A stretch of DNA of 45,069 bases from a virus: the IMG/VR virus record IMGVR_UViG_3300029607_000014, one strand, 5' to 3'. Under the pieces are notes generated by a model that saw only the letters and a program-made list of their open reading frames with translations, was not told the origin of the DNA and made no database searches. Below are positions 548-26,038 of this stretch, piece by piece (within the stretch, counting starts at the first letter, position 1; each line of letters opens with the position of its first letter). Position numbers and translations under genes: made by a program.

Positions 548-939
548 ACAAAATGCGTGAATATGAACGTGGCAGGGAAGATGGTCTTGACCTTGCTAGA
601 CGAATCACCAGAGAGGGCGGTCTTGAAGCCCTCGAAAAGGAATGCAGATTCAGGGGAGTAACAGGAATACATACTTCCCTGGCAAGAAAGGACCTGGACA
701 AAGCATCTGAGAAGATCAAACAGATTGTATCTGAATGCTGCGTGATCATGGCAATAGCTGTCCTGCATGATGAATTTGGATTCGGTCAGAAAAGATGCCA
801 GAAGTTCATGGCAGGCATGGACAAAGCTTCGGACTATATCGACCAGGGCTTGGCTGAATGGATTGATTATGTGCAGGCTATCAAGGAAGAACTGGGAATT
901 GAATTAAGCTTTTCAGGAGAAATAAAAAGACATGATTGA
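544..939 (+). CDS. hypothetical protein (131 aa)
   Basis: ATGA start/stop coupling with upstream ORF; same-strand operon. Confidence 0.6.
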   Translation: MNKMREYERGREDGLDLARRITREGGLEALEKECRFRGVTGIHTSLARKDLDKASEKIKQIVSECCVIMAIAVLHDEFGFGQKRCQKFMAGMDKASDYIDQGLAEWIDYVQAIKEELGIELSFSGEIKRHD

Positions 940-2308
940 TAATCTGATTATAGACGCATTTGCAGGCGGCGGTGGAGCATCAGTTGGAATTGAGATGGCT
1001 CTTGGAAGACCAGTAGACATAGCGATTAACCATGATCCTGACGCTATCCTGATGCACAAGACGAATCATCCCGGAACGCTGCATCTGACAGAAGATATTT
1101 TCAAAGTAGACTTGCAGAAATATGTTGGGAACCAGCACGTAGCGTTGATGTGGGCTTCGCCAGATTGTACGAGCCATTCAAAAGCGAAAGGCGGTCAGCC
1201 GAGAAAGCAGGGACTTCGTATTCTTCCGTGGGCTGTATATAAGCACGCAAAGGCGATTCTCCCAGATGTAATCATTATGGAGAATGTAGAAGAAATTCAG
1301 CAATGGGGACCATTGGACGAGGAAGGACATCCTATCAAGGAAAGAGCCGGTGAAGATTATCGAAAATTTATTTCAGCAATGGTAAATATTGGATATGAAT
1401 TTGATAGCCGGGAACTCGTAGCTGCGGATTATGGAGCACCGACTACAAGAAAGCGTTGGTATGCGGTGTTTCGTAGGGATGGAAAGCAGATAGTATGGCC
1501 AAAGCCTACGCATAATCGCTTGGGGACAGACGGTCTGAAGCCATACGAACAGTGTGGAGATTACATTGATTGGTCAGACTTAGGTAAAAGTATATTTGAC
1601 CGTCCGAAACCATTAGCAGAAGCAACACAGAAGCGCATTGCAAATGGAATCAAGAAATATATCGTTGATAATCCAGATCCGTATATTGTACGGAATAAAG
1701 ATGCACTGGCATTTATCATTCAGTATCATGGAGAAACCAGACAAGGAGATTCCAGAGGACAATTGCTAACTGAACCGATAAAAACCATTGATACCTCGAA
1801 CAGATACGGACTTGTGACAGCTTTTATCACGAAATATTACAAGACCGGAATCGGTCAAGGATGTGATGAGCCATTGCATACGATAACAACTTCGCCCGGC
1901 CACTTCGGTGTGATATCCGCTTTTCTGGTCAAATATTATGGGACAGGATGCGGACAGGTGCTTAATGAGCCACTTGGAACCATTACCACAAAAGATAGGT
2001 TCGGACTGGTAAATGTTCTGGTTGATATTCACGGGGAGAAATACATCATATCAGATATTTTTCTCAGAATGCTAAAGCCGGAAGAATTAAAGGTGATGCA
2101 GGGATTTCCAAAAGATTACATTATTGATCGGGATTACAAATGGAGAAATTACCCGATTGCAAAACAAGTAGCAAGAATCGGAAACAGCGTTGTGCCAGTT
2201 ATGGCAGAAGCACTTGTGAAAGCTAATTGCCCGTATCTGAAAGTCGGAGAGCGAAAAGCTGCACCGATGATTTATATGCAGAATAACGGACAGGTAGCAT
2301 TTGGCTAA
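932..2308 (+). CDS. DNA (cytosine-5)-methyltransferase, orphan
   Basis: C5-MTase motifs in order: DAFAGGGG (I), ASPDCTSHS (IV, catalytic Cys), ENV (VI), TTRKRWY (VIII), GNSVVP (X); large variable region with 3 tandem repeats. Confidence 0.9.
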   Translation: MIDNLIIDAFAGGGGASVGIEMALGRPVDIAINHDPDAILMHKTNHPGTLHLTEDIFKVDLQKYVGNQHVALMWASPDCTSHSKAKGGQPRKQGLRILPWAVYKHAKAILPDVIIMENVEEIQQWGPLDEEGHPIKERAGEDYRKFISAMVNIGYEFDSRELVAADYGAPTTRKRWYAVFRRDGKQIVWPKPTHNRLGTDGLKPYEQCGDYIDWSDLGKSIFDRPKPLAEATQKRIANGIKKYIVDNPDPYIVRNKDALAFIIQYHGETRQGDSRGQLLTEPIKTIDTSNRYGLVTAFITKYYKTGIGQGCDEPLHTITTSPGHFGVISAFLVKYYGTGCGQVLNEPLGTITTKDRFGLVNVLVDIHGEKYIISDIFLRMLKPEELKVMQGFPKDYIIDRDYKWRNYPIAKQVARIGNSVVPVMAEALVKANCPYLKVGERKAAPMIYMQNNGQVAFG

Positions 2309-2327
2309 ATGAAAGTGAGGATGAGAA

Positions 2328-2723
2328 ATGAAAATTATGTTAAAAGAAATCAGCAGAGACGATTTAAAGGTAGGAGATACCGTTGGAATTGCCAGGGAAG
2401 TAAGATGTGGGTGGGGAACCAGCTTCCGACACAGACGTATTTATCCGGCGACGATTGTAAAAATCACCACAAAGAGAACCAAAATCGAGACAGACCAGTT
2501 CGGAGAACATGATAAATACGAAATATTCTACGAATATGACAATAACGCCAAGAAAGAAACAGAGTTGGCAGAGAAGTTCGTGAAGATAAAAAATGCAATA
2601 TATAAACTTGACCAGTTCAGGAACGTACCTGGACTGAGACATCTTAGAGATGAAGACATTCTCGAAATGGCGGATTACGCAGAAAAAATAATGGAAATTT
2701 TAGACAGTTACAGAAATGAATAA
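2328..2723 (+). CDS. hypothetical protein (131 aa)
   Basis: GAGGATGAG RBS; followed by hairpin cctcgg-taaa-ccgagg (2729..2744). Confidence 0.6.
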   Translation: MKIMLKEISRDDLKVGDTVGIAREVRCGWGTSFRHRRIYPATIVKITTKRTKIETDQFGEHDKYEIFYEYDNNAKKETELAEKFVKIKNAIYKLDQFRNVPGLRHLRDEDILEMADYAEKIMEILDSYRNE

Positions 2724-2850
2724 CGAATCCTCGGTAAACCGAGGTTGTATCAAAATTAGAATGGTGAATTGATACATAAATAAATACAGAAATCATGGAG
2801 GACTGCACAATAGCGTGCCAGTTGCTTACATGGGGAAAGTGAGGATGGAA

Positions 2851-3078
2851 ATGGGAAAATTAAAACCTTGTCCGTTTTGCGGAAAAGAGATAGATACAGA
2901 GAAAAATGTATACATTCCAGACAGAGACTGGGCACCGTCTTTTTACGATCCTGACAGCGGGGGAAATCCAATAGCCATTCACTGTGAATGCGGATTAACA
3001 TTTTGCACAGACACATGGGATTGGAAGGAAGCTGTTGAAATATGGAATAAAAGAGTAAACAAGGAGGACGCAAAATGA
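2851..3078 (+). CDS. Lar-family restriction-alleviation-like small Zn-ribbon protein
   Basis: MGKLKPCPFCG...IHCECG...EAVEIWNKR matches the Lar-family pattern (N-terminal KPCPFCG, C-terminal WNxR); start moved to ATG 6 nt after GTGAGG. Confidence 0.6.
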   Translation: MGKLKPCPFCGKEIDTEKNVYIPDRDWAPSFYDPDSGGNPIAIHCECGLTFCTDTWDWKEAVEIWNKRVNKEDAK

Positions 3079-3359
3079 AATTCAAAAGTAATGCAAAATA
3101 CAACAAAGAACTTAAAACCGGAAGTATTTTCTCTTTAAAAAGCAATTCTCTGGGAATCGTTATTCACAAATATGTTGGTTGTGGAGATTCGCTGTTTCTT
3201 AGTAGCAGCACACTGAACATTGACAACTACGATCTTGAAACAGAAGATTTTGACGAAGCTGTCAGTAAAGCGAAAGAAATTATCATGAGTAAAGTTAAGA
3301 AAATCAGAGAGGATGCTTACAAATTCTATTCAGACAACAATATTGAATTTGACAGATAA
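3075..3359 (+). CDS. hypothetical protein (94 aa)
   Basis: AAGGAGG RBS, ATGA coupling with upstream stop. Confidence 0.6.
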   Translation: MKFKSNAKYNKELKTGSIFSLKSNSLGIVIHKYVGCGDSLFLSSSTLNIDNYDLETEDFDEAVSKAKEIIMSKVKKIREDAYKFYSDNNIEFDR

Positions 3360-3373
3360 GAGGAGGACAAAAA

Positions 3374-3541
3374 ATGAGCTACTGTGACGGAACTTGTAAG
3401 TATCTGAATGCAAGAAAACACAAATGCGAATTGACAGGAGAAAAACTCGCATACATGAAATACAGTAATGCTGTAATTAAGTGTTCAGTGCATGAACACA
3501 GGGGATTCTGTGAGAAAGACAAGGAGGACGCAAAATGTTAA
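3374..3541 (+). CDS. small Cys-rich hypothetical protein (55 aa; below ORF-track cutoff)
   Basis: AGGAGGA RBS at 3361; MSYCDGTCKYLNARKHKCELTG...CSVHEHRGFCEK; stop overlaps next start. Confidence 0.55.
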   Translation: MSYCDGTCKYLNARKHKCELTGEKLAYMKYSNAVIKCSVHEHRGFCEKDKEDAKC

Positions 3542-3834
3542 TCAGAAGTCAGAATAGAGAAGTATTGATTGATCTCAATTCTATGGCAGGCACTGAAATT
3601 GCGGAAGGACCTATAAAAACAATTATAACATCATACATAACCGGATGTAGTTATCTGCTAGGAGAATATTCGGATAAAGCAAAAGCCATGAAAGTACTGG
3701 ATATGATTCAGGAAGCTTATAGTGAATATCAAATCATGTTGAATTTCAGTGTAAGTTATCTTCACGAATTTAAAGAAAAAACAGATGGATTTGCTATCTT
3801 TCAGATGCCAGAAGATTCGGAGGTGGAAGAATGA
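3535..3834 (+). CDS. hypothetical protein (99 aa)
   Basis: Same 19-nt RBS/start string as gene at 3075. Confidence 0.6.
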   Translation: MLIRSQNREVLIDLNSMAGTEIAEGPIKTIITSYITGCSYLLGEYSDKAKAMKVLDMIQEAYSEYQIMLNFSVSYLHEFKEKTDGFAIFQMPEDSEVEE

Positions 3835-4235: not shown

Positions 4236-4577
4236 ATGCTGACAAGGAATAAAAAGCTGAAAGACTACGGTATTCCGGCAGAGGACATTGAAAAATTAAA
4301 TACGATACTAAAAGACTTTCCAGCAAAGTACGGATACCTGCTTTCCAGTGCTGCCTTGTCAGCTTGCCCGAAGAACACGGTGATAGCGGATATGGTTATC
4401 GAGAATATCCTACACCGGAAAAGTTACAGGAAAATCAGCAAAGAAAGATATATCCCGATGAATCCGAAAGACTTCTACGGATACAGACGCAAGACCGTCG
4501 CTGTACTGTATGAGAGAATGCGGTTGTTGGGAGTGTGGGGAGGAATAAGAGGGCAAAATGGAAAAAAGTTTGTTTAG
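4236..4577 (+). CDS. small sigma-region-4/ArpU-RinA-like putative transcription activator, paralog of 7160..7456
   Basis: GAAAGGAG RBS before ATG 4236; shares LxDYG(I/V)PxxDI...IPxxxxDFYGY(R/K)R with 7160..7456. Confidence 0.55.
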   Translation: MLTRNKKLKDYGIPAEDIEKLNTILKDFPAKYGYLLSSAALSACPKNTVIADMVIENILHRKSYRKISKERYIPMNPKDFYGYRRKTVAVLYERMRLLGVWGGIRGQNGKKFV

Positions 4578-4989
4578 CAGCAATTCCGATCAATGGGCTA
4601 CACCTAAATATATTTTCGATGAATTAAACAAAGAGTTTGATTTCACACTAGACCCATGTGCGGACGCAAAAAACCATAAATGCGAGAAATTTTTTACTAA
4701 AAATGAAAATGGTCTTATACAGGATTGGGGAGGAATGCGAGTATTTTGCAACCCACCCTACGGAAGAGAAATATATCAATGGGTTGAAAAAAGCTATCAG
4801 GAAGGACATAAAGAGAATACGCTCGTTGTTTTACTAGTTCCGGCAAGGACAGACACGAAGTGGTTTCAAGATTTTGTATATCACAGATCTGAGATTAGAT
4901 TTTTAAGAGGAAGGTTAAAATTCGGAGACAGTAAGAATAGCGCACCGTTTCCGTCAATGATAGTAATTTTTAGAGGACCTAAAATGTAA
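4558..4989 (+). CDS. phage-type DNA N6-adenine methyltransferase, orphan
   Basis: QWATPKYIFDEL..DPCA...VFCNPPYG (NPPY catalytic motif) ...LVPARTDTKWF. Confidence 0.85.
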   Translation: MEKSLFSSNSDQWATPKYIFDELNKEFDFTLDPCADAKNHKCEKFFTKNENGLIQDWGGMRVFCNPPYGREIYQWVEKSYQEGHKENTLVVLLVPARTDTKWFQDFVYHRSEIRFLRGRLKFGDSKNSAPFPSMIVIFRGPKM

Positions 4990-5006
4990 GCACAGGGAGG
5001 AATCAG

Positions 5007-5270
5007 ATGAGTAGACTGATAGATGCAGATAAGTTGAAACATGTAATACATTGTGCATATTCTGATGATTTAGAGATTCTTGAAAAGATTGACGAACAGC
5101 CGACAGTTTTTGATGTAGATAAGGTTGTGGAGCGGTTAGAAGAAGAAAAGAAGAGAACATTTAAACTATGTTTGGGAACTAATGACAGCACGCAAAGGCT
5201 GAAATACATTGAAAAAGAACAGACGATAGCTTTAGCAATCGAAATTGTAAAAGGTGGTGGAGTTGAATGA
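5007..5270 (+). CDS. hypothetical protein (87 aa)
   Basis: GGGAGGA RBS. Confidence 0.6.
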   Translation: MSRLIDADKLKHVIHCAYSDDLEILEKIDEQPTVFDVDKVVERLEEEKKRTFKLCLGTNDSTQRLKYIEKEQTIALAIEIVKGGGVE

Positions 5271-9463: not shown

Positions 9464-10909
9464 ATGGGACTTATAACAACACTAAAAAGGTGGTTTAACA
9501 TGATATTCAAAAAACAAGCCGAAGAGGATTTTAATATCCAGGCGGCAGAATTCCCAGAAATGGAATCACTGATTAACCGGTGCGCGAACATTTACAGGGG
9601 AGTGCCGGAATGGCTGGATGAAAAGAATAATATCAAGACGATTAATTTTGCGAAATCCGTCTGCTCAGAGACAGCTCGGCTTGCAACATTGGCGATCGGC
9701 ATTCAGATAGATGGCTCTGCAAGGGCAGCATGGTTGCAGGAGCAGATTGACAAGGTATATTTTCAAATCCGGCACTGGGTAGAATATGGCTGTGCTTACG
9801 GAACAGTGTTCATTAAGCCAAACGGTGAGAGCCTTGACATATTCACTCCGGCAGATGTGATGATTGTGGATTACGACAATCAGGAGATCAAAGGGATTAT
9901 ATTCAAGGATTCTTATACTGTTGGACGAAAATACTACACAAGGCTCGAATATCATAGATTTGTTGAGACTACAATAGATGGTGTGACAACTTATCCGTAT
10001 TATGTTTCTAACAGAGCCTATGTATCAAAATCTCCTCAAAGCATCGGAGACAAGATTGACCTTAAACAGACAAAGTGGGCTGACCTAATGGCAGACACTC
10101 CGCCGATTATTAAGGCGAACGGTGAGAAGCTGGACGGGCCTCTGTACGGAGTACTGCGGACACCGCAGGCAAATAACGTGGATATTAGTACGCCACTGGG
10201 ACTTCCGATATTTGCCGAAGCCATTGAGGAGTTAAAAGACCTCGACATTGCATATAGCAGGAACGCAAAAGAAATTCTTGATTCTAAGCGAACTGTTCTG
10301 GCAGATGACAGATTGTTGATGCCGAGTGGCTCACCTGTCTCCGCTATGACACCACAGGCAATGGAACATAGATGCTTAGAAATGAGCTTACCAGATTATG
10401 TAAAGAATGTATTCGGACAGGACGAAAAAGAGTTTTATCAAGAAATCAATCCGGTCCTCAACACAGATACCCGTATAAGCGGCATAAACGCCCTCCTTGG
10501 ACAGATTGGATATAAGGTCGGATTCTCTAATGGATATTTTGTATTTAATGAAAAAAGCGGAATACAAACAGCCACAGAGGTAGAAGCAGGACAACAGAGG
10601 TCTGTACAATTTATCAAGGACGTAAGAGACCAATTAGACAAAAGCATAAAACAAGTAGTATATGCGTTGAGCGTATATGCAGATTTATATGGATTGGCTC
10701 CAGTCGGTGCATATAAAGTTCAGTGCAACTTTGGCGAAATGGCATATTCTTATGAGAGAGACCGAGACAATTGGTGGAAGTATCGCTTACAGGGTGACTG
10801 TCCTCCTTGGATGTATTATGTCAAATTCGAAAATATGACAGAATCCGAAGCGAAAGCAATGGTCAAAGAAGCCCAGCCAGACGAACCAAAACTGTTTGGA
10901 GATGAATAG
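9464..10909 (+). CDS. portal protein
   Basis: 481 aa, immediately after terminase and before the MuF-like gene; acidic C-terminus. Confidence 0.75.
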   Translation: MGLITTLKRWFNMIFKKQAEEDFNIQAAEFPEMESLINRCANIYRGVPEWLDEKNNIKTINFAKSVCSETARLATLAIGIQIDGSARAAWLQEQIDKVYFQIRHWVEYGCAYGTVFIKPNGESLDIFTPADVMIVDYDNQEIKGIIFKDSYTVGRKYYTRLEYHRFVETTIDGVTTYPYYVSNRAYVSKSPQSIGDKIDLKQTKWADLMADTPPIIKANGEKLDGPLYGVLRTPQANNVDISTPLGLPIFAEAIEELKDLDIAYSRNAKEILDSKRTVLADDRLLMPSGSPVSAMTPQAMEHRCLEMSLPDYVKNVFGQDEKEFYQEINPVLNTDTRISGINALLGQIGYKVGFSNGYFVFNEKSGIQTATEVEAGQQRSVQFIKDVRDQLDKSIKQVVYALSVYADLYGLAPVGAYKVQCNFGEMAYSYERDRDNWWKYRLQGDCPPWMYYVKFENMTESEAKAMVKEAQPDEPKLFGDE

Positions 10910-15992: not shown

Positions 15993-16141
15993 TTTGTCAT
16001 CTGGCACGCAAGATGGCTCACCTCCTTGATTAAGGTTTTTGTTATTCATACTTTTCTTTTAAAAAAGAAATAAATATCCGAAACAACTCGTGGTAGGCAT
16101 AACACGTTAAATACCTTGCTAACCCGGGAATCCGGGTTATG

Positions 16142-16214
16142 TGGAATGTAGCTCAGTAGGAAGAGCGGAGATGCTGAATTCTTGACGTCAGAGGTTCAAG
16201 TCCTCTCATTCCAT
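16142..16214 (+). tRNA. tRNA-like gene, 73 nt, canonical acceptor/D/T arms but poorly paired anticodon stem (possible pseudo-tRNA; anticodon unassignable)
   Basis: tggaatg/cattcca acceptor; gctc-agtaggaa-gagc D arm; agagg-TTCAAGT-cctct T arm; anticodon stem gagat/tcttg has only 2 pairs. Confidence 0.5.
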
Positions 16215-16290
16215 TACCCTGCCAGTGGTCTAACTGGCTTAATCCATTTACCTGCGGCGGCAGGTCAATAAACACGACCAGGAGGATGTT

Positions 16291-21027: not shown

Positions 21028-21453
21028 ATGGCAAAAGTAATTAATACCAAAATTGATGATGGAATTTTCATATTCACGTTTACCAACAATGAAGACGAAG
21101 TTTTTTCTTCTTTCAAATTGAACCCAACCGATATCAATGTGGCAGCACGTGCAGAAGAACTGGCAGAATATTTTGAGCAGCTCAAAGATTCCATTCAGAA
21201 AGTCACTTCCGGTAAAGAGATGGCTGAACTCAATAAACAGATTGAAGACAAAATCAACTATCTGCTCGGATATGAAGCGTCCAAAGATCTGTTCAAAGAA
21301 CCAATCACAGCAACTACTGTGTTCGGCAATGGTCAGGTATTCGCTTATATCGTTCTGGATAAGATCGCAGAAGCAATTGCGCCGGAAATCGAAAAGAGAA
21401 AAAAGAAAATGCAGGCAGCAGTTAATAAGTATACGGAGAAGTATACAAAATGA
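21028..21453 (+). CDS. tail assembly chaperone
   Basis: Acidic 141-aa protein between major tail and TMP. Confidence 0.6.
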   Translation: MAKVINTKIDDGIFIFTFTNNEDEVFSSFKLNPTDINVAARAEELAEYFEQLKDSIQKVTSGKEMAELNKQIEDKINYLLGYEASKDLFKEPITATTVFGNGQVFAYIVLDKIAEAIAPEIEKRKKKMQAAVNKYTEKYTK

Positions 21454-22022
21454 CCGCCTATGAGCTTCCCACCTCACTAAATATCAGTGGGGTGGATTTT
21501 TCTATCAGAACAGATTTTCGTGCGATTATTGATATTCTAATTGCCATGAATGATCCGGAATTAGACGAGCAGGCAAAAGCAGTTGTTATGTTGCAGATTC
21601 TGTTCGAGGATTGGCAGAGTATACCGCCGGAACACTTATCTGAAGCCTGTCAGAAGGCGTGTGAATTTATTGACTGTGGTCAGACTGATGATAACTCAAA
21701 CAAGCCAAAGCCCCGTTTGATGGACTGGGAACAGGACGGAGATATGATCGTACCGGCAGTAAACAAGGTTGCTGGAAAAGAAATCAGGTCCGTTCCGTAT
21801 ATGCATTGGTGGACGTTCTTCGGATACTTCATGGAATCCGGTGAATGCCTGTTCAATACGGTCGTTGGAATTCGTTCAAAAAAGGTAAAGGGCGAAAAGC
21901 TCGATAAATGGGAGAAGAAATTCTATCAAGAGAACAAGAATATTATTGATATAAAAACACGTCTCAGCGACGAGGAGCAAGCTTATAAAGATAAGCTGAA
22001 TGAGATGTTGAACCTTAAATAG
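21450..22022 (+). CDS. phage Gp15-family protein (second tail chaperone position)
   Basis: ATGA coupling; SGVDFSIRTDFRAIIDILIAMNDPEL pattern of Gp15-like proteins upstream of TMP. Confidence 0.6.
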   Translation: MTAYELPTSLNISGVDFSIRTDFRAIIDILIAMNDPELDEQAKAVVMLQILFEDWQSIPPEHLSEACQKACEFIDCGQTDDNSNKPKPRLMDWEQDGDMIVPAVNKVAGKEIRSVPYMHWWTFFGYFMESGECLFNTVVGIRSKKVKGEKLDKWEKKFYQENKNIIDIKTRLSDEEQAYKDKLNEMLNLK

Positions 22023-22037
22023 TTAGGAGGTGGACAC

Positions 22038-22538
22038 ATGGCTGCTGATGGCTCAGTCATTATTGATACCAGAATGGACACATCAGGCGTGCAAAACGGC
22101 GTATCAGCAATCAGACAGTCTTTTAACGGACTTGGCAGCGTAGTAAAAAAATTAGGTGTACTGATTGGCGGAGCATTCGCAATTGGGAAACTGGCCCAGT
22201 TTGGGCAAGAGTGCATAGAACTTGGCTCTAATCTGGCAGAAGTGCAAAACGTGGTCGATGTTACATTTACCACCATGTCGGATAAGGTTAATGAATTCGC
22301 AAAGAACGCCATGACCTCAGCCGGATTGTCCGAAACAATGGCTAAACGATATGTCGGTACGTTCGGAGCAATGTCAAAGTCGTTCGGATTCTCAGAAGCA
22401 CAGGCTTACGACATGTCAACGGCTCTAACACAGCTGACTGGTGATGTAGCATCATTTTACAACATTTCACAAGACTTGGCTTATATAAAACTGAAGTCGG
22501 TTTTTACAGGAGAAACGGAAACACTTAAAGACTTGGGT
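22038..22538 (+). CDS. tail tape-measure protein, exon 1
   Basis: Ends ...LTGDVASFYNISQDLAYIKLKSVFTGETETLKDLG then in-frame TAA at the proposed 5' splice site. Confidence 0.8.
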
Positions 22539-22656
22539 TAACAATTAGCTCCCTTACACAGCAATGTGTATTGAATAACATGGTGAACGAAGAAATCTTC
22601 GGTGTGTTGCTTTATGAGCAATGCTAACGGTAAAAGCCTAAAATTATTTAAAAAAC

Positions 22657-22685
22657 TTGTGGTTATGACACCTATATGATATAAT
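22657..22685 (+). promoter_or_regulatory. intron-internal promoter for the HNH ORF
   Basis: TTGTGG-17 nt-TATAAT with TGa extended -10, followed by AGGAGG. Confidence 0.5.
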
Positions 22686-22705
22686 ATTTATAGGAGGTGA
22701 TTTCC

Positions 22706-23248
22706 ATGAGTGAAGAAATTTGGAAAGATATTAAAGGCTATGAGGGTCTGTATCAAGTAAGTAATCTGGGAAGAATAAAAAGCCTTGAGCGTAGATGTAA
22801 AGCAAGATGGTATACAAGAAAAGTACCAGAGAAAATTTATTCTCCTGCGCTTGATACTTACGGCTATCCAATAGTCTCTTTGCATAAAGACGGCAAAAAG
22901 AAAACAATTACAATTCATAAATTGGTTGCAAATGCTTTTCTTAAAAAGCCGGACGGTTGCAATTCTATTAATCACATTGACGAAAACAAACAGAATAATT
23001 GCGTTGAAAATCTTGAATGGTGTACCGTTCAGGAAAACAATGCTTATGGAACGAGAGTAGAACGGCTAAGGAAAACTCAGCAAAGAGCAGTTTTACAATG
23101 TGATTTAGACGGAAACGTAATCAAAGAATGGGAAGGAATGAACTTCCTTTGCAGAGAGACAGGATACGATCAAGGTCTAATATCTAAAGTATGCAACAAT
23201 GTTTATAGGCATCGCACTGCATATGGGTTCAAATGGAAATTTAAATAA
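22706..23248 (+). CDS. HNH homing endonuclease (NUMOD4-like N-terminus + HNH_3-like)
   Basis: WKDIKGYEGLYQVSNLGRIKS; INHIDENKQNNCVENLEWCTVQENN. Confidence 0.85.
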   Translation: MSEEIWKDIKGYEGLYQVSNLGRIKSLERRCKARWYTRKVPEKIYSPALDTYGYPIVSLHKDGKKKTITIHKLVANAFLKKPDGCNSINHIDENKQNNCVENLEWCTVQENNAYGTRVERLRKTQQRAVLQCDLDGNVIKEWEGMNFLCRETGYDQGLISKVCNNVYRHRTAYGFKWKFK

Positions 23249-23275
23249 TCATGGTAATACCGTGCTAAGCATCGA

Positions 23276-23301
23276 AGAGTCTCGTTAAGAGGCTCTTTTT
23301 T
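23276..23301 (+). terminator. hairpin + U5 after HNH ORF (terminator-like or intron peripheral stem)
   Basis: agagtctc-gttaa-gaggctct then ttttt. Confidence 0.35.
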
Positions 23302-23437
23302 GATGAAAGTGTAACGACTATTCCGCGAGGAAGTAGGTTTAAGGTGAAATTCCCTATTCCGAAGTGCCATGCATCCTATTTGGATGAAGAGATAGTCTAC
23401 TCCCCTAATAAATATCGGGAAACCGAGGGTATAAAGG

Positions 23438-26038
23438 GTCGTTATGACACAAAGCGCACTTGATCAGTACGCACTTGCTAATGGTTATGGGAAAACCACA
23501 TCTGAAATGACAGAGCAGGAGAAAGTGGCTCTCCGCCTGGCTTTTGTACAGAAACAGTTGTCTGCCGCATCTGGTGATTTCATCCGAACATCTGACAGTT
23601 GGGCGAACCAGGTGCGAGTGATGCAGTTACAGCTGCAATCTCTCAAGGCAACAGTCGGACAGGGATTAATCAACCTCTTTACTCCTGTTCTGAAAGTTAT
23701 CAATATCTTACTCGGTAAGTTAGCAACTCTGGCAAATGCCTTCAAGTCATTTACGGAATTGATTACCGGAAAGAAGTCTTCTGGACAAACAGGCGCGAGT
23801 GGCGCAGGCCTTGCCGGAACGGATGCAATAGCCGACACAGCCGATCAATACGGAGAAGCTGCCGATAATGCTGAAAAGCTGGCAGATGCAACAAATGATA
23901 CAGCGGACGCAACTAAAAAAGCTACTAAAGCGGCAAAAGGGTATCTTAGTCCCCTCGACGAAATAAATAATTACTCAACGGATAAAAGCGCAGATTCATC
24001 GTCAAAAGTACCGGGTGCAACCGGCGGACTTGCGGATCAGATGAAAGATGCTGTACAAAATGTTGATTACGGAAAGTTGGCAGAGGGTGAGACAGTTCTT
24101 GATAAAATGTCAAAACCGCTAAAAAAGATAATCGACAGATTTAAACAGCTGGCCAAGTTAATCGCAAAAGGATTCTGGGATGGATTGGGAGATTACGAGC
24201 CAATTTTTGACGGAATAAAGAAAGATCTCGATTCCATATGGAAATCTTTAAAGGATATCTTCACTGATTCAGAAGTTACTAAAGCAGCAAATAATTTTTT
24301 CGATTCATTTGCATATGCAATTGGACAAGTTGCTGGCTCATTTGCCAGAATCGGATTGACAATTGCGCAAAACATTATAGGCGGAATCGAGAAGTTTCTA
24401 AAGCAGAACGCGCAAAGAATAAAGAACTATCTGATAGATATGTTCAACATCGGTGCTGAAATTTCACAAATCGCAGGAAATCTTGCAGTTGCTTTCGCAG
24501 ATGTTTTCTCAGTTTTTGGTGGAGAAACCGCGCAGCAGATCACAGCAGATTTAATTGGGATTTTTGCTGAAATTGGAATGACCGTCACGGAAACGGCTGC
24601 AAAACTTGGCAGAGATATCCTTAACATGATTGCACAGCCTTTTATCGACAACAAGGACATTTTAAAGTCAGCAATCGAGGGTAGCCTCGGAGTAATAGAA
24701 ACCGTAACAAGTGGGGTCTTAACAGTTGTTCAAAACCTTAGTGACGCAGTATCAAGATTATACGATGAGCATGTAAAACCGTTCTTTGATTCTATAGCAG
24801 ATGGATTATCAAGTATACTTGAAACTCTAATAACTGGATATAACACATACATTCTTCCGGTGTTACAAGGACTGGCAGAGCAAATTAAAGGGTTGTTAGA
24901 GGGACCATTAGGGGACGCGATTTTAAAGATAGAAACATTCCTCGGAAAACTCATTGATTCTCTGAAGCTTCTGTGGGAGTCGGTATTAGTGCCTTTAATT
25001 AACTGGATAATCGCGAATTTGCTTCCAGTTGTGGCAGAAGTAATTGACGTTGTAGGCACTGTGGCAATCAAAGTCATAAAATCATTAATTAAAATTATTG
25101 GTGATGTAGCAGACACTCTGAGCGGAATCATTGATTTCCTTGTAGGCGTTTTTACGGGAGACTGGGAACTGGCTTGGCAAGGAATAAAAGAGATTGCAGA
25201 TGGAGCATGGAACTTTATCAAAGATGCTGTGTCAGGTGCGTGGGAGATAATTAAAACCGTAACAAAAGGTGCACTGAACATAATAAAGACCGTCATTAGC
25301 ACTGCCTGGAACGCAATCAAGACAGCAACTTCAACAGTCTGGAATGCCATTAAAAAAACTCTTTCCGGATTATGGAATGCTCTTAAAACCACGGCAAAAA
25401 CAGTGTTTGACGCAATTAAGGCCAAAGTTACGGGCGTTTGGGACAAAATAAAAGACAAGACATCCCGAACATGGGAAAGCATTACTACTTTTGTGTCTAC
25501 TAAAGTCGAAGCGATAAAAACCGCCATTACCGATAAGTTTAATGCTGCCAGGGATGCGGTCAAATCAGCATTTGAAGGTATCGTGGATTTTATCAAAAGG
25601 CCAATTAATCAGGCAATTAATATCGTCAATAATGCAATCGGAGTAATCAACAACGCAATTGGTGGAATCGAATCAGCGTTTTCTTTTGGCCCATGGAATG
25701 TACCTACACCATTCGGAACAAAGAGAATCGGGTTCCATGCAACATTTCCACGTGTCGGAACTATTCCGTATCTGGCCAGCGGTGCAGTTATTCCACCGCG
25801 AAGTGAATTTCTCGCAGTATTAGGAGACCAGAAGAAAGGGAATAACCTGGAAGCACCGGAAAGCTTACTGCGACAGATCGTCCGGGAAGAGTCAGGGAAA
25901 GGACAGGGAAATGGAAACACTTACAATGTTACAGTCAATGCATCTGGCAGAAAACTATTAGACATTATCATTGATGAAGCAGAGCTTAGGAGACGCAGAA
26001 ATGGCGGTCAGAATCCATTCTTGTTAGGAGGTGTATAA
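23438..26038 (+). CDS. tail tape-measure protein, exon 2
   Basis: VVMTQSALDQYALANGYGKTTSEMTEQEKVALRL...DFIRTSDSWANQVRV continues the conserved TMP core; long helical body with 11-aa Trp periodicity. Confidence 0.85.
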   Translation, partial: VVMTQSALDQYALANGYGKTTSEMTEQEKVALRLAFVQKQLSAASGDFIRTSDSWANQVRVMQLQLQSLKATVGQGLINLFTPVLKVINILLGKLATLANAFKSFTELITGKKSSGQTGASGAGLAGTDAIADTADQYGEAADNAEKLADATNDTADATKKATKAAKGYLSPLDEINNYSTDKSADSSSKVPGATGGLADQMKDAVQNVDYGKLAEGETVLDKMSKPLKKIIDRFKQLAKLIAKGFWDGLGDYEPIFDGIKKDLDSIWKSLKDIFTDSEVTKAANNFFDSFAYAIGQVAGSFARIGLTIAQNIIGGIEKFLKQNAQRIKNYLIDMFNIGAEISQIAGNLAVAFADVFSVFGGETAQQITADLIGIFAEIGMTVTETAAKLGRDILNMIAQPFIDNKDILKSAIEGSLGVIETVTSGVLTVVQNLSDAVSRLYDEHVKPFFDSIADGLSSILETLITGYNTYILPVLQGLAEQIKGLLEGPLGDAILKIETFLGKLIDSLKLLWESVLVPLINWIIANLLPVVAEVIDVVGTVAIKVIKSLIKIIGDVADTLSGIIDFLVGVFTGDWELAWQGIKEIADGAWNFIKDAVSGAWEIIKTVTKGALNIIKTVISTAWNAIKTATSTVWNAIKKTLSGLWNALKTTAKTVFDAIKAKVTGVWDKIKDKTSRTWESITTFVSTKVEAIKTAITDKFNAARDAVKSAFEGIVDFIKRPINQAINIVNNAIGVINNAIGGIESAFSFGPWNVPTPFGTKRIGFHATFPRVGTIPYLASGAVIPPRSEFLAVLGDQKKGNNLEAPESLLRQIVREESGKGQGNGNTYNVTVNASGRKLLDIIIDEAELRRRRNGGQNPFLLGGV

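Follow-up and report, generated by a model that had tools for sequence, protein, structure and literature searches.

A siphovirus tape-measure gene very probably interrupted by a mobile group I intron with an HNH endonuclease gene

Introduction

In the DNA stretch analysed here (45,069 nt, IMG/VR virus record IMGVR_UViG_3300029607_000014; in the following, the window), a gene for an HNH homing endonuclease lies between two open reading frames (ORFs) related to phage tape-measure proteins (TMP). This raises the question whether the locus comprises two separate TMP genes or one gene interrupted by an insertion that is removed from the RNA. An initial annotation had proposed a group I intron carrying an endonuclease gene with its own promoter. 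According to the present analysis, the segment 22539-23437 very probably represents a mobile intron (group I, phage IA type) within a single siphovirus TMP gene, for which we infer splicing and homing. The phage itself is a human-gut siphovirus, probably with a host among the Lachnospiraceae. All coordinates refer to the window, and all features lie on its plus strand.

Results

Compared to uninterrupted TMP alleles, the insertion comprises exactly 899 nt (22539-23437). The alignment to intron-less homologs, which the initial annotation had suggested, sets the insertion site to the base: window positions 22000-22538 correspond to positions 1908-2446 of the empty-site homolog L002, and window positions 23438-23965 resume at 2447. 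The ends of the insert are base-exact, and the reading frame is lost by a shift of 1 nt in either direction. The upstream ORF (22038-22541) ends ...VFTGETETLKDLG* with an in-frame TAA (22539-22541) adjoining the proposed 5' splice site, while the downstream ORF (23444-26038) starts with MTQSALDQYALANGYGK. Joining 22538 to 23438 gives ...ETLKDLG|VVMTQSALDQYAL..., a stretch that is contiguous in all 256 of 256 GenBank phage homologs. The junction is likewise uninterrupted in the best 80 prophage homologs and the best 80 IMG/VR homologs, and the stretch from exon 1 to exon 2 is also unbroken in the homologs L001-L003. The predicted sequence of the spliced RNA at the junction (22538|23438) is AAGACTTGGGT|GTCGTTATGAC and the predicted TMP peptide across it is DLGVVMTQSALDQYALANGYGK; the spliced translation comprises 1033 aa, its only stop being the terminal one.

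Since a search of the spliced TMP N-terminus against Pfam and NCBIfam gave no domain, the continuity of the gene was judged from PHROG profile positions and tblastn. Both flanking ORFs match phrog_1535, and they do so at adjoining stretches: exon 1 (22038..22538, 167 codons, last base U22538) at profile positions 163-298 and exon 2 (23438..26038) at positions 305-1148 (E = 2.9e-125). Exon 2 and the tail genes downstream of it have open reading frames. Together with the empty-site alleles, the adjacent profile matches on both sides bear out the proposal of one TMP gene split at 22538|23438.

The intron, which begins with the in-frame TAA and ends with G23437, is delimited by the empty-site homolog L002, and covariation supports its structure. 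At its 5' end, P1 (22535..22551) is formed by GGGU|UAA (22535-41) and UUAGCUC (22545-51) with 7 bp; at the 5' splice site it includes the wobble U22538.G22548. Exon and internal guide covary, as seen in the pairs GGGU/GCCC in the intron of Staphylococcus phage PH15 and in the relative L055, GGCU/GGCC in L035 and GCCU/GGGC in L016. While base -1 is U in 9/9 intron-bearing alleles, it is C in 54/59 empty alleles, which can be explained by the requirement of the P1 wobble for U. Exon bases -1 and +6 both agree with the guide. P10, as judged by inspection, is weak, comprising 5/6 pairs displaced relative to P1. At the 3' end, the empty-site alignment identifies G23437 as the final intron base, and this position is homologous to the end of the annotated PH15 intron.

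Downstream of P1, the P2 hairpin UACACA-GCAA-UGUGUA (22555..22570) carries a GNRA loop; all 6/6 pairs show compensatory changes. The 5' strand of P3, CAUGG (22579..22583), pairs with 23367-23371, is 100% paired in the 29 sequences of the test set described below and shows double changes in 5/5 pairs. Two hairpins follow in the interval between P3 and J3/4, namely H1 (22588-92/22597-22601; 85.5% paired, 4 pairs compensatory) and H2 (22604-10/22618-24; 95.2% paired, 5 pairs compensatory). The segment 22625..22652 then comprises J3/4 (UAA), the 5' strand of P4 (22627-32), J4/5 (AAA) and the 5' strands of P5 (22636-38) and P5a (22643-52). The corresponding 3' strands are found in 23240..23263: P5a at 23240-49, which includes the stop codon of the endonuclease ORF (23246-48), P5 at 23253-55 and P4 at 23258-63. 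P4 is 98.9% paired, with a double change from U-A to G-C in 5 sequences. The P5a stem is kept in PH15, L035 and L016, and in ORF-less relatives the P5/P5a arm ends in a short loop.

P6 (23264-65/23309-10 and 23270-73/23302-05) is 94.7% paired with compensatory changes in 4/4 pairs, and the segment 23264..23310 also holds P6a (23274-83/23289-98) and, 3' of it, a U run that is unpaired. The 5' strand of P7, GACUAU (23316-21), lies within the R-like string GUGUAACGACUAU and pairs with AUAGUC (23392-97). The interval from the P7 5' strand to the 3' strand of P3 holds P7.1 (UCC-GCGA-GGA; 23322-24/23329-31) and P7.2 (23336-37/23359-60 and 23342-44/23353-55, with conserved AGUA and GAAGYG strings at its borders), both of which show compensatory changes. 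The segment 23367..23397 is made up of the 3' strand of P3 (23367-71), P8 (23372-76/23382-86; 97.9% paired, 5/5 pairs compensatory), J8/7 (AAGAG) and the 3' strand of P7. The 3' part of the intron contains P9 (23402-04/23427-29; 84.5% paired) and P9.1 (UCGG-GAAA-CCGA, 23415-26; 75.2% paired), again with compensatory changes in both. The strings flanking P7, R (..ACGACUA..) and S (..AGAKAUAGUC..), are present, and Rfam aligns both at high posterior probability. In the window, none of the core helices is disrupted. The sequence features listed in the initial annotation were all found in place, and its assignments of P1 with U22538.G22548, of P2, of P7 and of the terminal G proved correct.

The structural model was evaluated with a test set of 29 relatives from which the ORF had been deleted. 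For the full model, 84.7% of cells were paired compared to 66.4% in shuffled and 37-43% in slid alignments, and compensatory changes were present in 65/84 pairs. The covariation score amounted to 0.380 compared to 0.129, and none of 500 shuffles attained any of the observed measures. With the adjoining profile matches of the two exons, this places the features well outside what chance would give. For P3, a test anchored independently of the alignment gave a mean of 4.64/5 pairs versus 2.47/5 in shuffled sequences, with 19/22 distinct strand combinations being perfectly complementary. P7 is 98.3% paired, but since it is invariant in the 29 sequences it yields no covariation signal; the same holds true for most of P4. 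The minimum free energy fold of the ORF-deleted RNA returned P2, P3, H1, H2, P4, P5, P5a, P6, P7.1 and P8 (z = -4.0), recovering 10/10 pairs of P5a, 3/3 of P5 and 6/6 of P4. The core thus shows the P3-P8 and P4-P6 domains together with the P3/P7 pseudoknot.

The Rfam search that the initial annotation had called for gave a divided result. At the gathering threshold, a tRNA was the sole match in the whole window; in permissive mode, the window reached 18.4 bits (E = 0.05) with the group I model RF00028, far below the gathering score of 50 bits. The ORF-less relative L116, in contrast, clears this threshold with 53.1 bits (E = 2e-10). Searches of the PH15, phi3T and EH93P1 loci gave no match at E<=0.01, although the PH15 intron is annotated as such and the other two loci contain intron-like spacers. 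Since the same model misses an annotated intron, the low score of the window is uninformative, and the initial view that a missing covariance-model hit would refute the intron was too strict. A like limit of sensitivity is on record for introns of phages that carry nuclease loops (PMC11878797). In the present case, the model takes the H1/H2 segment as an insertion and cannot align the two hairpins. The permissive alignment also used a second CAUGGU at 23250 as P3 strand; this string is not conserved in PH15 and was rejected as a decoy. Altogether, the reading as a group I intron with an endonuclease gene holds on the basis of the empty-site alleles, the covariation of the core including the P3/P7 pseudoknot, the homology to the PH15 intron and L116, and the full-length match of the ORF to I-HmuI.

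With regard to the subgroup, the additional pairings P7.1 and P7.2 are typical of IA introns. The window intron probably shares CCGUGCUAA at P4/P6, GUG(U/C)AACGACUAU at J6/7-P7, GAUAUAGUC at P7' and P7.1/P7.2 with T4 td and Twort orf142-I2, two phage introns of the IA2 subgroup. In T4 td and Twort orf142-I2, the P3 5' strand directly adjoins J3/4. Instead of such a short IA2-like link of P3 and P4 by J3/4 only, the window shows two covarying hairpins (22588-22601 and 22604-22624), for which this is an unusual location. Named P3.1/P3.2 elements were looked for in the literature with no relevant result, and no published name was found for the hairpins. The intron can be assigned to the phage IA type and appears IA2-like by P7.1/P7.2, while H1 and H2 keep the exact subgroup from being fixed.

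The terminal loop of P5a holds the endonuclease gene (22706..23248, 180 aa), which belongs to the I-HmuI family and is preceded by the ribosome binding site AGGAGG (22692-97, within 22692-22699) upstream of its ATG at 22706. As proposed initially, the ORF combines NUMOD4 (PF07463, 1.8e-18) with an HNH domain (HNH_3, PF13392, 2.2e-6); it also matches phrog_59 (2.3e-47). Homology to I-HmuI (PDB 1U3E, E = 3.8e-18) spans residues 6-179 of 180, with the motif NHxDxNKxNNxxxNLxW conserved and with the NUMOD4-type motif, the HNH motif and the C-terminal DNA-binding region in colinear order. The ORF is intact in 8/8 copies, which differ by 19-46 nt but by 1-5 aa only, and judging by this strong excess of silent changes it is under purifying selection. 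In the same loop, 5' of the gene, lies a promoter-like element (22657..22685) composed of TTGTGG (22657-62), a 17-nt spacer and TG-n-TATAAT (22677-85). An exact TATAAT is present 10-51 nt 5' of the ORF in 7/10 independent ORF-bearing relatives. A consensus scan flagged neither this element nor the P6a hairpin; for the promoter this can be explained by the -35 hexamer, which matches at 3/6 positions only. It is plausible that the predicted internal promoter serves the endonuclease gene.

The initial annotation had put a hairpin with a following U run downstream of the ORF and ahead of the catalytic core's 3' half. The hairpin (7-10 bp, 23274-23298) is confirmed but its placement is not, as it is P6a of the ribozyme itself, located within the P4-P6 domain and 3' of the P4 3' strand (23258-63). 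P6a covaries among the relatives, including an ORF-less one, and P6a plus U6-7 recurs in PH15, L055 and the ORF-less L016, where the stem is built from another sequence; the hairpin energies range from -10.3 to -13.5 kcal/mol. The suggestion that the hairpin could attenuate exon 2 expression unless the intron folds first is incoherent, since the same local hairpin belongs to the folded intron. P6a with its U run resembles an intrinsic terminator within an essential late gene, an observation that counts against the intron explanation.

The population pattern was assessed with nine intron-bearing contigs. Their introns show a mean identity of 96.3% (ribozyme parts 98.0%, ORF 95%), while the flanking 600 nt of the same contigs show 84.2% on the upstream and 79.2% on the downstream side. 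Across the nine, identity of the ribozyme parts is 96-100%, with host genes down to 65-92%; this identity despite the divergence of the host genes points to recent spread and purifying selection. In L103, for example, flanks of about 65-68% identity to the others surround an intron of 94-95%. The site is polymorphic for the presence of the intron: it is empty in at least 80 alleles with 98-100% aa identity and occupied in at least 9-11 contigs, the intron-bearing allele being the minority. Conservation of the intron far above that of the flanking exons indicates homing, as far as can be read from sequence comparison. Only five flanking bases (-13, -1, +3, +6 and +12) separate intron-bearing from intron-less alleles. 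A 22-mer spanning the spliced junction matched six public contigs, all of them genomic DNA of 20-47 kb and none cDNA. These contigs were rejected as evidence of splicing; they are genomic empty sites with flanks of the intron-bearing type, and accordingly the five diagnostic bases also occur where the intron is absent.

Discussion

The following course of events is predicted for this locus. The late pre-mRNA would fold into the P1-P9 ribozyme, whereupon an exogenous guanosine bound at P7 would attack after U22538, the base that forms the U.G wobble of P1. Next, G23437 at the intron end would dock and the exons would be ligated at 22538|23438, giving an mRNA for the 1033-aa TMP. The I-HmuI-family enzyme, of the nicking HNH type, would be made from its own ribosome binding site and probably from its own promoter. 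In co-infections it may cut intron-less TMP alleles, the repair of which would copy the intron along with a few flanking bases. Splicing and its catalysis, the activity and specificity of the endonuclease, and the use of the promoter are thus predictions, whereas the insert boundaries, the covarying fold, the RNA and protein homologies, the polymorphism and the high conservation of the intron are observed.

A further, doubtful possibility goes beyond this mechanism: internal promoter, endonuclease gene and P6a with the conserved U6 might form an autonomous transcription unit, in which P6a and its U tract also act as a partial terminator of the late transcript, so that the intron throttles TMP. 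If this were true, the intron would be a built-in attenuator of the mRNA for full-length TMP and the downstream tail genes and no neutral passenger.

Among the rival explanations, the one that survives best assumes a group I intron by descent that now splices defectively or inefficiently; the element would be in decay, its carrier a defective phage or the remnant of a prophage, and TMP in these contigs a pseudogene. The terminator-like hairpin within the intron and the minority status of the intron-bearing allele (at least 11 contigs compared to at least 80) would fit this assumption. Decay would, however, hardly leave all core helices intact, the ribozyme parts 96-100% identical in nine contigs, the endonuclease ORF intact in 8/8 copies with silent changes in strong excess, exon 2 and the downstream tail genes open, and exon bases -1 and +6 in agreement with the guide. 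We therefore regard it as quite unlikely.

Slightly less probable still is the insertion of a free-standing HNH gene with no splicing (intronless homing), so that TMP would be a non-covalent assembly of two proteins with 167 aa and 864 aa. Phage genes split by free-standing endonuclease genes are on record (review PMC3984707). Moreover, exon 1 terminates at a stop codon, an in-frame ATG (23444) with a weak purine-rich stretch upstream lies near the start of exon 2, and the window scores below the Rfam gathering threshold. Yet the methionine at 23444 is also present in uninterrupted alleles (VVMTQ) and hence is no evolved start, and the same stretch is in one piece in the 256 homologs from GenBank phages as well as in the best 160 retrieved from prophages and viral contigs. 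A mere gene insertion would likewise leave unexplained that the non-coding sequence on both sides of the ORF, approximately 356 nt, folds into a covarying group I core with a pseudoknot, that conservation of this core (98%) exceeds that of the ORF (95%) and the host gene (79-84%), and that the insert ends as U|...G, as catalysis requires. An assembly chimera placing an intron fragment of another phage into TMP, conceivable for metagenome-like data, is effectively refuted by the same intron, site and exon flanks in at least 9-11 independent IMG/VR contigs with differing flank sequences and by the base-precise ends that keep the reading frame.

For the preferred reading as a mobile group I intron, the closest annotated counterpart is the intron in the terminase large-subunit gene of Staphylococcus phage PH15 (RefSeq NC_008723, join CDS, internal endonuclease gene), which belongs to the same RNA family. 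The 5' modules are 72% identical over 116 nt and the 3' modules 75% over 205-213 nt. Both introns share the P1 context GGGU|UAAC, a GNRA P2, the pair of hairpins that separates P3 from J3/4, the location of the ORF within the loop of P5a, a U6 tract after P6a, P7.1/P7.2 and a P9.1 hairpin with GAAA loop, while P3, P6, P6a and P8 differ through compensatory changes. The splice sites are at homologous positions, and the same splice-site rule reproduces the annotated join. In contrast to the window, the host gene of PH15 is a terminase and the ORF is of the GIY-YIG/SegB-like type instead of HNH.

An ORF-less intron of 317 nt from the same RNA family is present in another TMP, that of L016 (IMGVR_UViG_3300048923_000238). 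Both introns reside in one conserved TMP motif, FTGETE(S/T)LKDLGVVMTQ, but the splice site of L016 is located 13 nt upstream, in a Leu codon (CU|A), with the guide altered to fit (GCCU/GGGC). Its P5a ends in a 17-nt loop where the window has the ORF, and its P7.1/P7.2 region is unlike that of the window. For the SPO1 DNA-polymerase intron, likewise a group I intron of a Gram-positive phage, the comparison is at the protein level: its enzyme I-HmuI (PDB 1U3E) is a full-length homolog in which the N-terminal WKDIKGYEG.YQVSN and the HNH motifs are conserved, whereas the host gene is a DNA polymerase.

Introns in TMP genes have precedents. Prophages of the Bacillus cereus group carry the group I introns TMP-IVS1, -IVS2 and -IVS3 (IA1/IA2) at conserved sites in TMP genes (Tourasse & Kolsto 2008; PMC2504315), and related introns of this group occupy different TMP sites via changes in P1, spread by phages (PMC2504315). 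Compared by their published description, they differ from the window intron in host clade, TMP family and sites. While TMP-IVS3b and the tail-tube intron, the two elements named there in this respect, have no complete endonuclease gene (PMC2504315), that of the window is intact and evolves under purifying selection.

Group I introns, including those in TMP genes, are already known and the window adds one more; the general knowledge of group I introns and homing endonucleases is unchanged by the finding. For annotation, it means that gene calling would report a TMP such as this one as two genes along with a stray HNH gene, and that the standard Rfam model offers no rescue. The same RNA family is abundant in gut viromes and also present, although unannotated, in the deposited genomes of Enterococcus phage EH93P1 (terminase) and Bacillus phage phi3T (yonO). 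With a single site, many empty alleles and an intron conserved far above its host gene, the locus provides a clean snapshot of homing, and the hosts of TMP introns gain a human-gut phage lineage, probably one of Lachnospiraceae.

Boundaries of the insert in the tape-measure gene

Two ORFs, 22038-22541 (+; ending in ...VFTGETETLKDLG*) and 23444-26038 (+; N-terminus MTQSALDQYAL), match neighbouring stretches (163-298 and 305-1148) of one tape-measure protein (TMP) profile, phrog_1535. Between them lies a third ORF (22706-23248, +) with NUMOD4 and HNH_3 domains, a member of phrog_59. Every sequence feature listed in the initial annotation, which proposed a group I intron with an HNH endonuclease gene, was found at its position. 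Uninterrupted TMP alleles occur in three human-faecal phage contigs; in one of these, L002, positions 1908-2446 correspond to 22000-22538 of the window, and 23438-23965 resumes at L002 2447. The sequence ...ETLKDLGVVM(T/S)QSALDQYAL... is unbroken in all three. Since moving the junction by one base in either direction destroys the frame, the insert comprises exactly 22539-23437 (899 nt), the final exon base being U and the final insert base G. The spliced TMP has 1033 aa. The 135 aa spanning the junction are encoded unsplit in all 256 GenBank phages having a homolog, in the best 80 prophage matches (up to 87% identity; predominantly from Lachnospiraceae, others from Streptococcus) and in the best 80 IMG/VR matches (98-100% identity).

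Directly 5' of the TMP gene, the usual place of tail assembly chaperones, two ORFs with a 4-nt overlap were observed at 21028-22022 (+), encoding 141 aa (phrog_11299) and 190 aa (Pfam Phage_Gp15). A tRNA-Gln (anticodon CTG) was found at 16141-16215 (+) by Rfam (43.7 bits) and also by ARAGORN.

Assignment to the group I introns

With the general Rfam group I model (RF00028) the window remained below threshold, while a permissive search scored 23194-23419 at 18.4 bits and aligned the R and S strings. The initial annotation had regarded a missing covariance-model match as a refutation, but the same model also gave no match on the RefSeq-annotated terminase intron of Staphylococcus phage PH15, nor on two further relatives, so that this point had to be corrected. 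This weakness of Rfam has already been described for introns of phages in which a loop holds a nuclease gene (PMC11878797). The P3 strand chosen by Rfam, a second CAUGGU at 23250, was rejected as a decoy; this string is not kept in PH15.

Over its 3' 205 nt, the insert shares about 75% identity with the PH15 intron, and similarity to PH15 is likewise seen in the 5' part, namely in the P1 context, P2 and the GCUAACGGU string. Matches to the 3' 135 nt were found at loci of SPbeta/phi3T and Twort-like phages. Of the 62 paired 5'/3' modules obtained by a pattern scan of IMG/VR together with nhmmer, many are compact and lack an ORF. Among them is L116, which shares 84% identity with the 3' core of the window and passed RF00028 (53.1 bits, E = 2e-10). 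Applied to PH15 as a control, the splice-site rule of the window gave an in-frame terminase of 420 aa, in agreement with the annotated join ends. Altogether, the initial interpretation, corrected for the Rfam criterion and for the hairpin discussed below, is supported, and the intron is predicted to be catalytic.

Structure of the ribozyme

Helix coordinates were assigned by comparison. P1 (22535-41/22545-51) contains the pair U22538.G22548 and is followed by P2 (22555-60/22565-70), P3 (22579-83/23367-71), two hairpins, H1 (22588-92/22597-22601) and H2 (22604-10/22618-24), and J3/4 (UAA). The P4-P6 domain is formed by P4 (22627-32/23258-63), P5 (22636-38/23253-55), P5a (22643-52/23240-49), P6 (23264-65/23309-10 and 23270-73/23302-05) and P6a (23274-83/23289-98). 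The 3' part comprises P7 (23316-21/23392-97), P7.1 (23322-24/23329-31), P7.2 (23336-37/23359-60 and 23342-44/23353-55), P8 (23372-76/23382-86), P9 (23402-04/23427-29), P9.1 (23415-18/23423-26) and the terminal G at 23437.

This model is supported by an alignment-independent P3 anchor test, by pair counts on an alignment of 29 ORF-deleted introns and by a thermodynamic fold. In the anchor test, 19 of 22 distinct P3 strand pairs were perfectly complementary despite differing sequences, with a mean of 4.64 of 5 positions paired compared to 2.47 after shuffling (maximum 3.36 over 5000 shuffles). On the alignment, 84.7% of the cells of the whole model were paired, compared to 66.4% in shuffled and 37-43% in slid registers; compensatory changes occurred at 65 of 84 pairs, and the covariation score was 0.380 compared to 0.129, none of 500 shuffles attaining any observed measure. 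P3, P6 and P8 were 95-100% paired with every pair compensatory, five sequences carried a double change from U-A to G-C in P4, and P7 was without variation. The minimum free energy fold of the ORF-deleted RNA independently yielded P2, P3, H1, H2, P4, P5, P5a, P6, P7.1 and P8 (z = -4.0).

The sole structural oddity of the intron is the H1/H2 pair between P3 and J3/4 (22588-22624; alignment columns 60-104), which is common to at least 29 relatives and is bordered by the invariant strings (G)UGAAC and GGUGU in all 29 aligned introns. The Rfam model handles this segment as an insertion and mis-pairs P3. A literature search found no name for these covarying hairpins, and T4 td and Twort I2 are not known to have them.

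Endonuclease gene and its putative promoter

In ORF-less relatives the P5-P5a arm is capped by a short loop (17 nt in L016, described below); in the window this loop is occupied by the endonuclease gene, whose stop codon (23246-48) falls within the P5a 3' strand. The protein can be aligned over its full length to I-HmuI (PDB 1U3E, E = 3.8e-18), the HNH homing endonuclease from the group I intron of the SPO1 DNA-polymerase gene. The ORF is unbroken in all eight other copies, which differ by 19-46 nucleotides and merely 1-5 amino acids; its product is probably an active endonuclease.

The proposed promoter sequence TTGTGG-17-TGaTATAAT is located at 22657-85, where a consensus promoter scan flagged nothing, since the -35 hexamer agrees at only three of six positions. 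An exact TATAAT lies 10-51 nt 5' of the ORF start in seven of ten independent ORF-bearing relatives with differing endonuclease families, which would be comparative support for a promoter, not proof; the ORF may be transcribed from within the intron. It was also observed that the 3' strands of P5 and P4 could form a local 6-bp hairpin (23250-23265, CAUGGU-AAU-ACCGUG). Such a hairpin would rival the native long-range pairing of P4 and P5, and would be the only option in an internal-promoter transcript, in which the ribozyme 5' half is missing.

The hairpin with a U run, placed by the initial annotation between the ORF and the 3' half of the core as a possible attenuator of exon 2, is P6a, a ribozyme helix within the P4-P6 domain. 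It resembles a terminator on paper, because a hairpin with differing stem sequences followed by U6-7 recurs in PH15, in the relative L055 and in L016, with folding energies of -10 to -13.5 kcal/mol. The suggested escape by folding of the intron first is incoherent, since the folded intron itself includes this hairpin. The unpaired U run immediately 3' of P6a (window 23299-23301; PH15 locus L004 ~2088-2093; L055; L016) is kept in four lineages and may represent a structural bulge or a transcription terminator.

Relatives in other phages

An ORF-less 317-nt intron of the same family interrupts the TMP gene of another phage, L016 (IMGVR_UViG_3300048923_000238, reverse complement ~3298-3614). It lies in the same conserved motif as the window's intron but 13 nt upstream, at CU|A of a Leu codon (...GETESL|KDLGVVMT...), and its internal guide is altered in step with the shifted site; without the intron, the reading frame again extends over 893 aa or more.

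In Bacillus phage phi3T (KY030782, locus 2241-2655), the annotation divides a yonO homolog into two hypothetical proteins (phi3T_60 and phi3T_59, each described as "similar to SPbeta yonO") on either side of an ORF-less spacer of ~415 nt. This spacer, whose 3' part shares 75% identity with the intron core of the window, probably represents a group I intron missed in the annotation of yonO. The terminase large subunit of Enterococcus phage EH93P1 (OP172804, locus 927-3057) is annotated as CDSs 927-1748 and 2524-3057 with a GIY-YIG-like "hypothetical protein" (1817-2422; N-terminus MIIYQATNLINGKSYIGQT) between them. Since 5' and 3' modules of the family border this ORF, the gene holds an unannotated intron.

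Several family members per contig were observed in L078 and L082 (IMGVR_UViG_3300012979_000041) and in L012/L041, with three in ~6 kb of L078 (roughly 4385-4672, 4905-5192 and 10081-10407) and three in L012/L041. On L057, where a family member lies at ~737-978, Rfam calls a second, different group I intron at a distance of a few hundred bases (1462-1872, minus; 54.0 bits).

Mobility and comparison with published systems

The intron occupies this TMP site in at least 9-11 IMG/VR contigs. Among nine of them, its mean identity was 96.3% (ribozyme parts 98.0%, ORF 95.2%), compared to 84.2% and 79.2% for the 600 nt upstream and downstream. In L103, the TMP flanks are ~65-68% identical to those of other carriers and the intron 94-95%. 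Compared to 59 empty alleles, bases typical of occupied alleles were found within +-400 nt only at -13, -1, +3, +6 and +12, all silent. Position -1 is U in all nine occupied and C in 54 of the 59 empty alleles, which fits the wobble requirement of P1. A search with the spliced-junction 22-mer gave no evidence of splicing and matched six long genomic contigs, all intron-free; thus, occupied-type flanks occur at empty sites too. Homing is typically accompanied by co-conversion of flanking markers (PMC3984707).

Prophages of the B. cereus group carry IA1/IA2 group I introns at three sites of their TMP genes, including related introns retargeted via P1 to different TMP sites (Tourasse & Kolsto 2008, PMC2504315), and group I introns with looped phrog_59 NUMOD4/I-HmuI-type HNH genes are common in phages of Gram-positive bacteria (PMC11878797). 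Both TMP group I introns and looped HNH genes were therefore already known before the element described here.
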